Assembly (NCBI RefSeq): GCF_041248615.1
Contig: NZ_CP158426.1
DNA length: 64,000 nt
From: Escherichia coli
Lineage (GTDB): Bacteria > Pseudomonadota > Gammaproteobacteria > Enterobacterales > Enterobacteriaceae
Strand: one strand, 5' to 3'
The notes under the pieces are model-generated. The model was given only the letters and a program-made list of their open reading frames with translations, ran no database searches and had not been told where the DNA came from. Numbering within the stretch: position 1 is the stretch's first letter; each line of letters opens with the position of its first letter. Of this stretch, positions 23,252-63,708 are shown piece by piece. A program made the translations under genes and the position numbers.

Positions 23252-24175
23252 CTAGCGCGTTCGCTGCGAAAGCACCTGCTGCTTATCCAGCTTTTGCACC
23301 AGCGGCTGCACCACTTTATCCCCATGCTGACCAAAGTATTGATACAGCGTATCGGACGCACTTTTGGTCAGCACCATAATCTCAATGCGTCGGTTGCCCG
23401 CGCTTTGCGGATTTTTGGCATCCAGCAGCATCTGGTCCGCCATTGCGCTTACCTGCATCACTTTATCTTCCGGCATTCCAGCCTCTTCCAGCACCCGACG
23501 GGCCGAAAGCGCGCGATCGCCCGAAAGGTTCCAGTTGTTGTAGATATTGTTTTTGTAGGCCATCGCATCGGTATGCCCGGTGATGATGATCTTATTGTCG
23601 AGCGAATCAAAAACCGGCGCTAACTCCACCAGCAAAGTTTTAAAGAACGGCATAATCTGCGCGCTGCCGCGTTCAAACATATTGCGGTTCTGGTCATCTT
23701 TAATCAGCACGCGCAGTCCCTGGGGAACAATCTCCATCTCCAGATTCGCTTCCATATGCGCATCACGGGCGATGGTGTTGATACTGGTTGCCAGCTCACC
23801 AAGCTCAGTAGCGGATTTCTTCTTCAGCAGCGCCGTTTTCTCATTGACGTCACGCGCTTTTTTCTCCGTCTCTTCCGGCACCGCCACGGTGGCAGGTTTT
23901 GGCGGATGAGACGGGCTGATTTTATTTAACGGCGACAACCCGCCGCCATTGAAAATCGACTGCCCGTGCAGCGCGGCGATAATGCTTTCACGCTCGGATT
24001 TACTGACGCTGTTGACAATCCACAGCGTCATAAACAGCGCCATCATTGCCAAAGTAAAGTCGGCGAACGCCACCTTCCACGCCCCGCCGTGGTGCCCGGC
24101 ATGATTCTTTTTGATCTGCCGCCGGACGATGGTGGTTTTTGCCCCACGCTCGCGGCGGTTGCCCGTCTTTCTCAT
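23252..24175 (-). CDS. lafU: Lateral-flagellar stator protein MotB homologue (OmpA-like C-terminus)
   Basis: TM helix then peptidoglycan-binding domain; start at MRKTG two nt after lafT stop; appears full length (K-12 mbhA is the truncated counterpart). Confidence 0.8.
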   Translation of the reverse strand: MRKTGNRRERGAKTTIVRRQIKKNHAGHHGGAWKVAFADFTLAMMALFMTLWIVNSVSKSERESIIAALHGQSIFNGGGLSPLNKISPSHPPKPATVAVPEETEKKARDVNEKTALLKKKSATELGELATSINTIARDAHMEANLEMEIVPQGLRVLIKDDQNRNMFERGSAQIMPFFKTLLVELAPVFDSLDNKIIITGHTDAMAYKNNIYNNWNLSGDRALSARRVLEEAGMPEDKVMQVSAMADQMLLDAKNPQSAGNRRIEIMVLTKSASDTLYQYFGQHGDKVVQPLVQKLDKQQVLSQRTR

Positions 24176-24177
24176 GC

Positions 24178-60502: not shown

Positions 60503-61631
60503 CAGCAGCGAAGAAAAAACAGAGAAACCCTCGGCGCAAAAGCTGCGTAAAGCGCGTGAAGAGGGGCAACTGCCGCGCTCGAAGGATATGGGGCTGGCAG
60601 CGAGCCTGTTTGCGGCGTTTGTGGTGATCTCCAGCAGCTTCCCGTGGTATGCCGATTTTGTGCGCGAGAGTTTTATCAGCGTGCATCAGTACGCGCAGGA
60701 GATTAATAACCCGCAGGTGATCGGTCAGTTTCTGCGCCACCACCTGTTAATTCTCGGCAAGTTTATCCTTACGTTGCTGCCGATGCCCGCCGCCGCGCTG
60801 CTCTCTTCGCTGGTGCCGGGCGGCTGGCTGTTTCTGCCGAAAAAAATCCTCCCGGATTTCAGCAAAATTAGCCCGTTAAAAGGCATTGGGCGTCTGTTTT
60901 CCAGTGAACATCTGGCGGAAACGGGAAAGATGACGGTGAAGTCTGCCGTGGTGCTGGTGATGCTGTGGGTAAGCCTGCGCAATAACTTTGCCGCCTTTCT
61001 CGGCCTGCAGGCGCTGCCGTTCAAACTGGCGATGAATGACGGTTTGTCGCTCTACGCCAGCGTGATGCGCAACTTTGTCATCCTGTTTATTTTCTTTGCG
61101 CTTCTCGACGTGCCGCTGGCGAAAGCCCTGTTCACCAAAGGGCTGAAGATGACCAAACAAGAACTGAAAGAAGAGTACAAAAATCAGGAAGGCAAGCCGG
61201 AAGTGAAGGCGCGCGTGCGGCGGCTGCAACGGCAGCTGGCGATGGGGCAAATTCGCAAAGTGGTGCCAAAGGCCAACGTGGTGATCACCAACCCGACCCA
61301 CTACGCCGTGGCGTTGCAGTATGACCAGTCGCGTGCCGCCGCGCCGTTTGTGGTGGCGAAAGGCACCGATGAAATCGCCCTCTATATTCGCCAGGTCGCT
61401 GCTGAAAGTCAGGTGGAAGTGGTCGAGTTCCCGCGGCTGGCGCGCTCGGTTTACTACACCACTCAGGTGAATCAGCAAATTCCTTTTCAGCTTTACCGGG
61501 CTATCGCCCACGTTCTGACCTACGTCCTGCAAATGAAACACTGGCGCGAGGGCGCACAGCCGCGCCCGGCCCTGAACAGACATATTTCCATTCCCAAAGA
61601 GGTGCTTAAACTGGATGGCGAAAACAACTAA
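60492..61631 (+). CDS. lfhB: Export switch protein FlhB homologue
   Basis: 379 aa, NPTH autocleavage motif (VVITNPTHYAVAL). Confidence 0.9.
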   Translation: MADSSSEEKTEKPSAQKLRKAREEGQLPRSKDMGLAASLFAAFVVISSSFPWYADFVRESFISVHQYAQEINNPQVIGQFLRHHLLILGKFILTLLPMPAAALLSSLVPGGWLFLPKKILPDFSKISPLKGIGRLFSSEHLAETGKMTVKSAVVLVMLWVSLRNNFAAFLGLQALPFKLAMNDGLSLYASVMRNFVILFIFFALLDVPLAKALFTKGLKMTKQELKEEYKNQEGKPEVKARVRRLQRQLAMGQIRKVVPKANVVITNPTHYAVALQYDQSRAAAPFVVAKGTDEIALYIRQVAAESQVEVVEFPRLARSVYYTTQVNQQIPFQLYRAIAHVLTYVLQMKHWREGAQPRPALNRHISIPKEVLKLDGENN

Positions 61632-63708
61632 ATCGTTCCTCGCGCTGCTGCGCGGCGGCAATCTCGGCGTGCCGCTGGTGATCCTGTGTATTCTGGCGAT
61701 GGTTATTCTGCCGCTGCCGCCTGCGTTGCTGGATATTCTGTTCACCTTCAACATTGTGCTGGCGGTGATGGTGCTGCTGGTGGCCGTGTCGGCGAAACGT
61801 CCGCTGGAATTCAGCCTGTTCCCGACCATTTTGCTGATCACCACCTTAATGCGCCTGACGCTCAACGTTGCTTCTACGCGCGTGGTGTTGCTGCACGGGC
61901 ATCTCGGCGCGGGCGCGGCGGGTAAGGTGATTGAGTCATTTGGTCAGGTGGTGATTGGCGGCAACTTTGTCGTCGGCTTCGTGGTGTTTATCATCCTGAT
62001 GATCATCAACTTTATCGTCGTCACCAAAGGGGCCGAGCGTATTTCCGAGGTTTCTGCCCGCTTTACCCTGGACGCGATGCCCGGCAAACAGATGGCGATT
62101 GACGCCGATCTTAACGCCGGGTTGATCAACCAGGCGCAGGCGCAAACCCGGCGTAAAGATGTTGCCAGCGAGGCCGATTTCTACGGCGCAATGGACGGGG
62201 CATCGAAGTTTGTGCGCGGGGATGCCATCGCCGGGATGATGATTCTGGCGATCAACCTGATCGGCGGCGTCTGTATCGGGATCTTCAAATACAACCTGAG
62301 CGCCGATGCCGCCTTCCAGCAATATGTGCTGATGACCATCGGCGACGGCCTGGTGGCGCAGATCCCGTCCCTGCTGCTTTCCACCGCGGCGGCGATTATC
62401 GTCACCCGCGTCAGCGACAACGGCGATATTGCCCATGACGTGCGTAACCAGTTGCTGGCAAGCCCGTCGGTGCTCTACACCGCCACCGGGATCATGTTTG
62501 TGCTGGCGGTTGTGCCGGGGATGCCGCATCTGCCGTTTTTGCTGTTCAGCGCCCTGCTTGGTTTTACCGGCTGGCGGATGAGCAAACGCCCGCAGGCGGC
62601 GGAGGCGGAAGAGAAAAGCCTCGAAACACTGACCCGAACCATCACCGAAACCAGCGAGCAACAGGTCAGTTGGGAAACTATTCCGCTGATCGAGCCCATC
62701 AGCTTAAGCCTCGGCTACAAGCTGGTGGCGCTGGTGGACAAAGCACAGGGTAACCCGCTCACCCAGCGGATTCGCGGCGTGCGGCAGGTGATTTCTGACG
62801 GTAACGGCGTGCTGCTGCCGGAGATCCGCATTCGGGAAAACTTCCGCCTCAAGCCCAGCCAGTACGCCATTTTCATCAATGGCATTAAGGCTGATGAAGC
62901 GGATATTCCGGCGGATAAACTGATGGCCCTGCCCTCCAGCGAAACCTACGGCGAGATTGACGGCGTGCTGGGGAACGACCCGGCGTACGGGATGCCGGTG
63001 ACCTGGATCCAGCCCGCGCAGAAAGCGAAAGCGCTGAATATGGGGTATCAGGTGATCGACAGCGCCAGCGTGATTGCCACCCATGTGAACAAGATTGTCC
63101 GCAGCTATATTCCTGATTTGTTTAACTATGATGACATCACGCAGTTGCATAACCGTTTGTCGTCGATGGCACCGCGCCTGGCGGAAGATTTGAGCGCGGC
63201 GCTCAATTACAGCCAATTGCTGAAAGTGTACCGGGCGCTGCTGACCGAAGGCGTTTCCCTGCGCGATATTGTCACCATCGCCACCGTGCTGGTCGCCAGT
63301 AGCACAGTGACCAAAGATCATATCCTGCTGGCGGCCGATGTGCGCCTGGCATTGCGGCGCAGCATTACCCATCCGTTCGTTCGCAAGCAGGAGCTGACGG
63401 TGTATACGCTGAATAATGAGCTGGAAAATCTGCTCACCAACGTGGTGAATCAGGCGCAACAGGGCGGGAAAGTGATGCTCGACAGCGTGCCGGTCGATCC
63501 GAATATGCTCAACCAGTTCCAGAGTACGATGCCGCAGGTAAAAGAGCAGATGAAAGCGGCGGGGAAAGACCCGGTGCTGCTGGTGCCGCCGCAGTTGCGT
63601 CCTTTGCTGGCGCGTTATGCAAGGTTGTTTGCGCCGGGGCTGCATGTGCTGTCGTATAACGAAGTGCCGGACGAGCTGGAGTTGAAGATTATGGGGGCGT
63701 TGAGTTGA
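61615..63708 (+). CDS. lfhA: Export-gate protein FlhA homologue (intact; K-12 fhiA is the truncated counterpart)
   Basis: 697 aa, N-terminal 8-TM domain plus cytoplasmic domain. Confidence 0.9.
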   Translation: MAKTTKSFLALLRGGNLGVPLVILCILAMVILPLPPALLDILFTFNIVLAVMVLLVAVSAKRPLEFSLFPTILLITTLMRLTLNVASTRVVLLHGHLGAGAAGKVIESFGQVVIGGNFVVGFVVFIILMIINFIVVTKGAERISEVSARFTLDAMPGKQMAIDADLNAGLINQAQAQTRRKDVASEADFYGAMDGASKFVRGDAIAGMMILAINLIGGVCIGIFKYNLSADAAFQQYVLMTIGDGLVAQIPSLLLSTAAAIIVTRVSDNGDIAHDVRNQLLASPSVLYTATGIMFVLAVVPGMPHLPFLLFSALLGFTGWRMSKRPQAAEAEEKSLETLTRTITETSEQQVSWETIPLIEPISLSLGYKLVALVDKAQGNPLTQRIRGVRQVISDGNGVLLPEIRIRENFRLKPSQYAIFINGIKADEADIPADKLMALPSSETYGEIDGVLGNDPAYGMPVTWIQPAQKAKALNMGYQVIDSASVIATHVNKIVRSYIPDLFNYDDITQLHNRLSSMAPRLAEDLSAALNYSQLLKVYRALLTEGVSLRDIVTIATVLVASSTVTKDHILLAADVRLALRRSITHPFVRKQELTVYTLNNELENLLTNVVNQAQQGGKVMLDSVPVDPNMLNQFQSTMPQVKEQMKAAGKDPVLLVPPQLRPLLARYARLFAPGLHVLSYNEVPDELELKIMGALS

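Follow-up and report, generated by a model that had tools for sequence, protein, structure and literature searches.

The 64,000-nucleotide stretch of Escherichia coli DNA analysed here (the window) carries a set of flagellar genes at a site where E. coli K-12 retains two pseudogenes, which raises the question of whether the second flagellar gene cluster known as Flag-2 is present there in full and whether it could still serve to build a flagellum. The first part can be answered with high confidence: the window carries a complete and uninterrupted copy of the known enterobacterial Flag-2 locus at its usual site, encoding a whole second proton-driven flagellum that would be controlled by a predicted regulatory cascade. 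The locus is not a novelty, because Flag-2, its distribution, the K-12 scar, the variable cargo regions and the EcoRII/Dcm insertion have been published and the sequence is annotated in RefSeq. As a discovery, the analysis carries little weight, since it re-describes a well-known accessory locus that was already annotated. Flag-2 was described in 2005 in enteroaggregative strain 042 (Ren et al., J Bacteriol 187:1430, as cited in PMC6993521) and surveyed in 2020 (De Maayer, PMC6993521).

The locus between dinB and yafL

In megablast, the window aligns at 100% and full length with the chromosome of the clinical isolate E. coli NRZ14408 (NZ_LT599825.1, 4163546–4227545, plus strand), and the gene calls are those of the RefSeq (PGAP) annotation of this record. 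The Flag-2 locus spans 23252–63708 (40,457 bp; 40.5 kb) between dinB and yafL, and the bounds proposed in an earlier note on this DNA fall exactly on the stop codons of lafU and flhA. It comprises 44 annotated coding sequences, from lafU (23252–24175, minus strand) to flhA (61615–63708, plus strand), none of them flagged as a pseudogene. Annotation and the comparison with K-12 and 042 place it at the usual Flag-2 site, with lafU on the dinB side and lfhA on the yafL side. No RNA family was detected within the locus by an Rfam scan. The flanking genes are:

22126–23181, minus strand: dinB, flanking the lafU side
from 63806: yafL, C40/NlpC-P60 peptidase gene, flanking the lfhA side

All 44 coding sequences proved to be in frame in our own translation, with an ATG or GTG start, a terminal stop and no internal stops, and the check for frameshifts against homologues that the earlier note had suggested revealed no disruption in any of the 44. 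When the window proteins were searched by tblastn against the locus of 042 (NC_017626.1), the type Flag-2 locus, each flagellar gene gave one full-length, colinear match with 94–100% amino-acid identity, with the exception of flgC. This gene (lfgC) is a single open reading frame (ORF) of 143 amino acids in the window, whereas in 042 it yields two high-scoring segment pairs split at residue 16/17 and is labelled 'frameshifted' by PGAP. Both the translation and the 042 alignment thus bear out the claim that the structural ORFs are uninterrupted and of expected length, flgC included. The idea that assembly artefacts might hide frameshifts was considered and is countered by a second record, NZ_OW967178.1, with 100.0% identity over window positions 44000–64000, as well as by the independently intact locus of MS1266.

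The assigned functions are backed by NCBIfam hidden Markov models (HMMs), mostly with near-complete profile coverage and scores over the curated cut-offs. The models recovered every part that had been listed for the system, namely flagellin, cap, hook, rod, rings, export apparatus and switch, and likewise the MotAB-type stator, the sigma-28 factor, the anti-sigma factor and the sigma-54 activator. The proposal of a full second flagellar system between dinB and an NlpC/P60 gene is therefore upheld by annotation and by colinearity with 042. Three syntenic clusters are present (lfhAB-lfiRQPNM-lafK-lfiEFGHIJ, lfgNMABCDEFGHIJKL and lafWZABCDEFSTU), colinear with 042 apart from cargo insertions, and the Flag-2 markers LafK, LafW, LafZ, LafA and LafB are all found with 98.8–100% amino-acid identity to 042. 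The interval is not purely flagellar, as it also contains a foreign EcoRII/Dcm cassette, flagellin-modification genes, LafZ and LafW. None of these was mentioned in the earlier note, nor was the absence of a muramidase domain from LfgJ and of the CheY-binding peptide from LfiM.

Strain 042 (Ren et al. 2005) has the locus at the same site; its three clusters match those of the window in order and orientation, and amino-acid identity is 94–100% for every flagellar gene. It shares with the window the genes of the region between lfgN and lfiJ (VR1), which encode LafV, a GT2 glycosyltransferase and a TagD-like protein, together with the LafK, LafW, LafZ and LafA markers. The two loci differ in that 042 has a frameshifted flgC and no EcoRII/Dcm cassette, whereas the window has an intact flgC and a 3.0-kb cassette between lfgA and lfgM. 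Furthermore, 042 carries a RelE/ParE-helix-turn-helix (HTH) pair in VR2 and rayT beside lfhA, neither of which is found in the window, and its repetitive extragenic palindromic (REP) elements occupy other spacers. The avian strain MS1266 (NZ_CP135959.1) has all genes intact and the restriction-modification cassette at the identical position, with about 5% nucleotide divergence from the window (dS 0.19).

The comparison with K-12 agrees with the earlier statement that this strain holds just the fhiA and mbhA pseudogenes (now lfhA and lafU), as seen by tblastn and annotation. K-12 MG1655 retains only LafU residues 30–307 and FlhA/LfhA residues 125–696, which its annotation lists under lafU and lfhA as pseudogenes, along with rayT. 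By nucleotide alignment, the K-12 deletion amounts to 37,987 bp and corresponds to window positions of about 24024–61995. At the lfhA'-lafU' (fhiA/mbhA) scar, K-12 shares with the window both end genes and their location, and what remains of them is 96–97% identical at the nucleotide level. A search for the perfect direct repeats that reportedly bound the K-12 deletion found, in this strain, only an imperfect microhomology of about 15 bp at the junction.

The distribution of the locus was estimated over 5,426 complete E. coli genomes. The flgA-flgM part is carried by 1,278 of them (23.6%), and in megablast of window segments 22000–46000 and 44000–64000 the number of genomes with 80% or more of a given half of the locus was 995 to 1,259. 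The proportion agrees with the published figure of 24 Flag-2 carriers among 100 E. coli strains; the same survey gives the full conserved complement in 461 of 592 Enterobacterales loci (De Maayer et al., PMC6993521). An intact copy is common rather than unusual in E. coli. Inspection of individual loci showed MS1266 to be intact throughout, a single stop codon in flgK of O111:H8 and the frameshifted flgC of 042.

Genes of the three clusters

The cluster on the dinB side encodes the stator, several regulators and the filament:

23252–24175, minus strand: lafU, MotB-like stator subunit (NF005273 LafU 580 bits, profile 1–297/297; 99.3% amino-acid identity to 042)
24178–25041, minus strand: lafT, MotA-like stator subunit (TIGR03818 MotA 375 bits, 1–281/282)
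25054–25773, minus strand: lafS, sigma-28 factor of the FliA family (NF009091 444 bits, full profile)
25793–26260, minus strand: lafF, FliL family (weak FliL HMM matches; 100% amino-acid identity to 042)
26268–27329, minus strand: lafE, FliK-like hook-length control protein (PGAP name; C-terminal YscP-type domain, E 1.5e-8)
27326–27637, minus strand: lafD, 103-amino-acid protein (full-length 042 match, 95%; no match in Pfam or NCBIfam HMMs)
27642–28034, minus strand: lafC, FliS flagellin chaperone (TIGR00208 E 4e-22)
28057–29373, minus strand: lafB, FliD filament cap (NF005955 FliD E 5e-44, profile 32–455/465)
29578–30492, minus strand: lafA, lateral flagellin, short at 304 amino acids (NF033376 lat_flg_LafA_1 667 bits, 1–304/304)
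30978–31820, plus strand: lafZ, ToxR/CadC-like membrane regulator (N-terminal CadC/OmpR-type winged-helix matches; hydrophobic segment in the sequence)
31879–32856, minus strand: lafW, putative hook-associated protein, Flag-2-specific (98.8% to 042; no match in NCBIfam or Pfam)

Both lafZ and lafW are known as Flag-2 marker genes (PMC6993521). The proton-relay aspartate of the stator is kept, with LafU Asp39 aligning with MotB Asp32, and MotA Pro173 and Pro222 are conserved in LafT. At the rotor-interface charges of MotA, LafT shows R90→Q and E98→D; this loss of Arg90 and Glu98 may be compensated in LfiG. Against the second LafA model, NF038071, LafA scores 280 bits, under the 365-bit cut-off. 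The same flagellin (WP_000949083.1) is encoded in four lineages (NRZ14408, 042, O111:H8 7-27 20A and MS1266), the genes differing synonymously (dS 0.05 versus 042). This invariance is the opposite of what is seen in the hypervariable primary flagellin FliC.

The central cluster encodes the rod, rings and hook, and includes two REP-containing spacers:

32873–33802, minus strand: lfgL (FlgL; TIGR02550 197 bits)
33817–35193, minus strand: lfgK (FlgK; TIGR02492 352 bits, full profile)
35269–35353: REP element or bacterial interspersed mosaic element (BIME) in the lfgK-lfgJ spacer (sequence read; matches K-12 REP copies beside rayT)
35369–35668, minus strand: lfgJ, rod-binding domain only, 99 amino acids (aligns solely to positions 21–91 of the 294-position FlgJ profile)
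35668–36768, minus strand: lfgI, P-ring (NF003676 451 bits; signal peptide visible)
36783–37448, minus strand: lfgH, L-ring lipoprotein (NF009072 432 bits, 1–220/220; lipobox LLSGC)
37531–38316, minus strand: lfgG, distal rod (TIGR02488 352 bits)
38343–39080, minus strand: lfgF, proximal rod (NF009280 317 bits)
39080–40282, minus strand: lfgE, hook (NF005286 533 bits, 1–402/402)
40283–40425: REP pair (BIME) in the lfgE-lfgD spacer (repeat matches across E. coli genomes in megablast fall here)
40426–41139, minus strand: lfgD, hook cap (NF007198 218 bits)
41139–41570, minus strand: lfgC, rod protein (TIGR01395 131 bits, 3–136/137)
41573–41908, minus strand: lfgB, rod protein (NF009328 156 bits, full profile)
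41990–42727, plus strand: lfgA, P-ring chaperone (TIGR03170 121 bits)
45805–46080, plus strand: lfgM, anti-sigma-28 factor (TIGR03824 49 bits, exceeding the cut-off of 40.75)
46093–46521, plus strand: lfgN, FlgK/L chaperone (PGAP name; 99.3% to 042; no NCBIfam match)

The lfgK orthologue of O111:H8 has an internal stop. The lfgE-lfgD spacer measures 143 bp in the window and 23 bp in 042, which has a longer lfgG-lfgH spacer instead, indicating that REP insertions vary between strains within the flagellar operons.

The third cluster, preceded by the VR1 genes, encodes the export apparatus, the basal body base and the switch:

46648–47580, plus strand: lafV, FliB-like flagellin lysine-N-methylase, VR1 (NF038110 E 5.7e-12, under the curated cut-off; no Pfam match)
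47627–50092, plus strand: 821-amino-acid GT2 glycosyltransferase with a weak TagB/F-like region, VR1 (PF00535 E 8e-16; PF04464 E 0.012)
50237–50641, minus strand: TagD-like glycerol-3-phosphate cytidylyltransferase, VR1 (TIGR01518 E 1.6e-33, under the curated cut-off)
50644–51078, minus strand: lfiJ (FliJ; TIGR02473 58 bits, over the cut-off)
51081–52418, minus strand: lfiI, export ATPase (NF005535 765 bits; Walker B LLLVDS)
52411–53121, minus strand: lfiH (FliH; NF009925 316 bits)
53125–54135, minus strand: lfiG, rotor/switch protein (TIGR00207 203 bits, 12–329/338, slightly under the cut-off)
54113–55759, minus strand: lfiF, MS ring (TIGR00206 222 bits)
55764–56105, minus strand: lfiE (FliE; TIGR00205 73.5 bits)
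56120–57106, minus strand: lafK, sigma-54 enhancer-binding activator (aligns solely to NifA 201–527 and FlbD 120–445)
57479–58330, plus strand: lfiM, divergent FliM-like switch protein, 283 amino acids (only the C-terminal FliMN_C domain detected)
58323–58694, plus strand: lfiN (FliN; TIGR02480 83.5 bits)
58691–59443, plus strand: lfiP (FliP; TIGR01103 243 bits)
59446–59718, plus strand: lfiQ (FliQ; TIGR01402 80 bits)
59720–60502, plus strand: lfiR (FliR; TIGR01400 175 bits)
60492–61631, plus strand: lfhB (FlhB; TIGR00328 342 bits; NPTH autocleavage motif at residue 267)
61615–63708, plus strand: lfhA (FlhA), export gate (TIGR01398 774 bits, 3–677/678)

The VR1 genes (the LafV methylase, the GT2 enzyme and the TagD-like enzyme) probably modify flagellin. 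They have been described as probable flagellin-modification genes, and LafV itself appears in the Flag-2 survey (De Maayer et al., PMC6993521). In LafK, the GAFTGA loop lies at residue 81 and the P-loop reads GETGAGKE; since its HMM alignments cover just the central AAA+ and HTH domains, it has no receiver domain. The deviations of LfgJ, LfiM and LafK seem to be general to Flag-2, because the three proteins share 98–99% identity with their 042 counterparts. The 372-bp divergent spacer between lafK and lfiM contains, at 57245–57300, a GC-rich palindromic repeat (…CCCTCACCCTAACCCTCTCCCCGGATGGGGCGAGGGGAC…) that resembles boxC-type intergenic repeats.

Promoters and the inserted cassette

The promoters that could order expression of these genes are the following, with the strain comparisons made against 042, O111:H8 and MS1266:

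29406–29420, minus strand: sigma-54 promoter, TGGCAC-N5-TTGC with 0 mismatches, 33 nt upstream of lafB; the same sequence in all three other strains
35226–35253, minus strand: candidate sigma-28-type promoter, TTAAG-N15-GCCGCTTT, 32 nt upstream of lfgK; weak
41946–41960, minus strand: sigma-54 promoter with 0 mismatches, 38 nt upstream of lfgB; GG/GC core conserved in the three other strains
45739–45766, plus strand: candidate sigma-28-type promoter, TAAAG-N15-ACCGCTTT, 38 nt upstream of lfgM; identical in the three other strains
46598–46613, plus strand: near-consensus sigma-54 promoter, CGGCAC-N5-TTGCA with one mismatch, upstream of lafV; identical in the three strains

TGGCAC-N5-TTGC occurs without mismatch at two sites in the whole 64-kb window, both of them within the locus and on the correct strand. 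Comparison with 042, O111:H8 and MS1266 shows all three sigma-54 sites to be conserved, any change falling at a non-core position. When one mismatch is allowed, the consensus is found 10 times in the window against 8.1 expected; in view of this lack of enrichment, only the two perfect, well-placed and conserved sites were taken as meaningful. The canonical enteric sigma-28 sequence, TAAA-N15-GCCGATAA with up to two mismatches, gave 11 matches against 5.2 expected, none of them in a useful intergenic position. A candidate motif, TAAAG/TTAAG-N15-(A/G)CCGCTTT, is common to the regions upstream of lfgK and lfgM, with between-strain substitutions confined to the spacer; these sigma-28 promoters are predicted from sequence.

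In the lateral-flagellar hierarchy of Vibrio parahaemolyticus, LafK acts together with sigma-54, and late genes follow under sigma-28 after export of a FlgM-type factor. The window encodes a dedicated sigma-28/FlgM anti-sigma pair, LafS and LfgM, which together with LafK and the sigma-54 promoters fits this hierarchy. If E. coli follows the lateral systems of Vibrio and Aeromonas, the likely order would be as follows. The receiver-less LafK would turn on the sigma-54 promoters before lfgB (rod and hook) and before the lafB-to-lafU operon, which would supply the sigma-28 gene lafS. LfgM would restrain LafS until completion of the hook-basal body and would then be exported, and the freed LafS would drive late genes such as lafA, lfgKL and lfgMN.

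One step of this scheme, the LfgM checkpoint, lies next to the restriction-modification cassette:

42733–45734: EcoRII-type restriction-modification cassette insertion (3,002 bp; guanine-plus-cytosine content about 37%)
42915–44339, plus strand: Dcm-type DNA cytosine-5 methyltransferase (NF007772 912 bits)
44427–45632, minus strand: EcoRII-like type II restriction endonuclease (PDB 1na6 EcoRII E 2.9e-188, residues 1–400 versus 3–403)

Alignment to 042 indicates that the cassette takes the place of 5 bp in the lfgA-lfgM spacer, which is 80 bp long in 042, starting 5 bp past the lfgA stop and ending 70 bp before lfgM. Its specificity is assumed from homology to be CCWGG. The two genes are convergent, with a hairpin between them (44357–44392). 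No terminal direct or inverted repeats and no target duplication were found around the cassette beyond an imperfect junction similarity of 7–8 nt, so a transposon-type insertion is not supported. The cassette is present in 28 of the 1,278 genomes carrying the flgA-flgM part of Flag-2, one of which, MS1266, was inspected. EcoRII and Dcm cargo has already been reported in 21 Escherichia Flag-2 loci (De Maayer et al., PMC6993521).

The position of the cassette allows the reading that it uncoupled lfgMN from an upstream promoter, leaving the sigma-28 checkpoint mis-regulated and the system effectively disabled despite its intact ORFs. Such an effect would fit the arrangement in 042 and O111:H8, where lfgA, lfgM and lfgN are contiguous on one strand with the 80-bp spacer, and the 3.0 kb now lying between lfgA and lfgM contain a convergent gene pair and a hairpin that would block read-through. 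We nevertheless consider it improbable. The 70 bp upstream of lfgM are untouched, including the conserved sigma-28-like sequence, and, as this candidate promoter begins 5 bp past the end of the insertion (45734), lfgMN probably keeps a promoter of its own despite being cut from lfgA. In addition, the cassette persists in the 28 genomes, among them the otherwise intact MS1266, with no visible decay of the adjoining genes.

Function, selection and surroundings

Selection on the locus was assessed by dN/dS, the ratio of nonsynonymous to synonymous divergence, using the Nei-Gojobori method over all orthologous codons in three pairwise comparisons. The ratio is 0.061 versus 042 (dS 0.119), 0.062 versus O111:H8 strain 7-27 20A (dS 0.177) and 0.058 versus MS1266 (dS 0.189), and values of about 0.06 imply that the locus is under strong purifying selection. 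Most structural genes have dN/dS below 0.1, the most relaxed being lafE (0.48, the highest in the locus) and lafV (0.29). The dS of individual genes versus 042 spreads from 0 (fliE) to 0.27 (lfgJ), which suggests a recombination mosaic of tracts across the locus. There are 54 strain-private substitutions, none obviously disabling; this pattern and the low dN/dS argue against a decaying relic.

On the basis of intactness, conserved promoters and purifying selection, the Flag-2 system of this strain may be functional. We infer that the organelle could actually be made, and Flag-2 expression is probably conditional. Our tentative interpretation, which we hold as a possibility and no firmer, is that selection actively maintains Flag-2 as a working, conditionally induced organelle, whose trigger would enter via LafK and LafZ and whose motor would run without CheY control.

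Several observations weigh against this interpretation, some of them from regulation and gene content. The search for sigma-54 boxes gave nothing ahead of the lfiM and lafK operons, their shared 372-bp spacer included; both operons may be early and sigma-70-dependent. Neither a canonical nor a convincing sigma-28 promoter was detected upstream of lafA, and the cassette parts lfgMN from lfgA. The most notable of the strain-private changes are in LafS, which has a one-codon insertion (+Leu6) and the change P163Q relative to the three other lineages. LfgJ matches only the rod-binding part of FlgJ and so has no muramidase domain; because the locus also has no muramidase gene, the peptidoglycan-cutting enzyme for Flag-2 must come from elsewhere. 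As for LfiM, whose N-terminus reads MLKYSKTPGIF..., neither the LSQxEIDALL CheY-P-binding peptide nor the FliM middle domain was found, and in BLASTP with K-12 FliM only 38 C-terminal residues align, with no similarity at the N-terminus. The missing peptide suggests that CheY does not control switching of the Flag-2 motor as it normally would.

Other points of the same kind come from the distribution and from experiment. About 76% of E. coli no longer have the locus, and sporadic breaks occur elsewhere, as in flgC of 042 and flgK of O111:H8. The one published E. coli test of a locus with intact lfgC concerns EC958 (ST131): under laboratory conditions no LafA protein was detected, and at neither 28 nor 37 °C did a fliC mutant show motility (PMC4637896). 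The EC958 locus is reported to lack several accessory genes that the window has (PMC4637896).

These data bear on the view that the locus is intact yet silent, that is, a cryptic cluster kept by recent descent or recombination and heading for a K-12-like deletion. EC958 would be an instance of it, showing no LafA expression or Flag-2 motility; the lfhA/lafU deletion scar seen in about 76% of E. coli (PMC6993521 and genome comparison) would be its endpoint, and the single-gene lesions of 042 and O111:H8 and the lack of a clear lafA promoter also speak for it. Nonetheless, this view seems unlikely to us, given that a dN/dS of about 0.06 at dS 0.12–0.19, in three independent comparisons, means that most amino-acid changes have been removed over a long time. 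Moreover, four lineages encode one and the same flagellin protein although their genes diverge synonymously, and the promoter boxes are conserved.

A different suggestion is that the Flag-2 structure is assembled but used chiefly for protein secretion or adhesion instead of motility. Secretion roles have been speculated from cargo genes (De Maayer et al., PMC6993521), and the lack of the CheY-binding peptide in LfiM and of the muramidase domain in LfgJ, as well as the non-conservation of MotA R90 in LafT, could be read in this way. We judge it very improbable: the full stator, with its proton-relay aspartate and both MotA prolines, is under strong purifying selection along with a complete set of hook, junction, cap and flagellin genes, and this copy has no secreted-effector cargo.

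A working, conditionally induced organelle would resemble the laf systems of Vibrio parahaemolyticus, Aeromonas hydrophila and Plesiomonas shigelloides, each a second, separately regulated set in which a LafK activator and a sigma-28/FlgM pair go together with a short flagellin and a MotAB stator of the proton type. These are distant orthologues, likened here by description rather than by sequence. The three organisms have a polar primary flagellum and a surface-induced lateral system, whereas E. coli has a peritrichous primary system and a Flag-2 whose expression is probably conditional. The Plesiomonas lateral system is given as essential for swarming (PMC4481668; PMC11420993), and the literature likewise cites Flag-2 as a system that Yersinia enterocolitica expresses and that Plesiomonas shigelloides needs in order to swarm (PMC6993521, PMC11420993).

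The value of the present locus is practical, as strains with intact genes, conserved promoters and purifying selection suit expression and motility experiments on E. coli Flag-2. If the organelle is indeed maintained in working order, strains of the NRZ14408 type, in which no Flag-2 gene is broken, would be the ones in which to look for the inducing signal.

Some features of the surrounding DNA complete the description. Both yafL (the C40 peptidase gene) and dpaA flank the locus; they are mere neighbours and, for peptidoglycan cutting, candidates only. Pseudogene flags are present in the window outside the locus, on prfH, an RtcB fragment and a major facilitator superfamily (MFS) transporter gene. 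The prfH gene and the RtcB-family ligase gene (20119–20673) are represented only by frameshifted or truncated fragments, both being intact in 042, and the MFS transporter gene (7756–8883) is an annotated pseudogene with an internal stop. A tRNA-Thr gene (12151–12226, minus strand) adjoins a truncated ykgR and LysR-family fragments, and this region (11444–12226) looks like the scar of a tRNA-associated integration hotspot; in K-12, thrW is the site of the CP4-6 prophage. An IS009 match (RF02111, 188 bits, Rfam) lies at 1427–1627 (minus strand), beside ykgJ and yagU.

Toxin–antitoxin sites around Flag-2 differ by strain. In the window, yafNO adjoins dinB, with no RelE/ParE-HTH or HicAB pair such as occurs around Flag-2 elsewhere. 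The RelE/ParE-HTH pair of 042 lies in VR2 (31887–32537 of the compared 042 stretch), and HicAB is found next to lfhA in O111:H8 (39837–40464 of the compared O111:H8 stretch).

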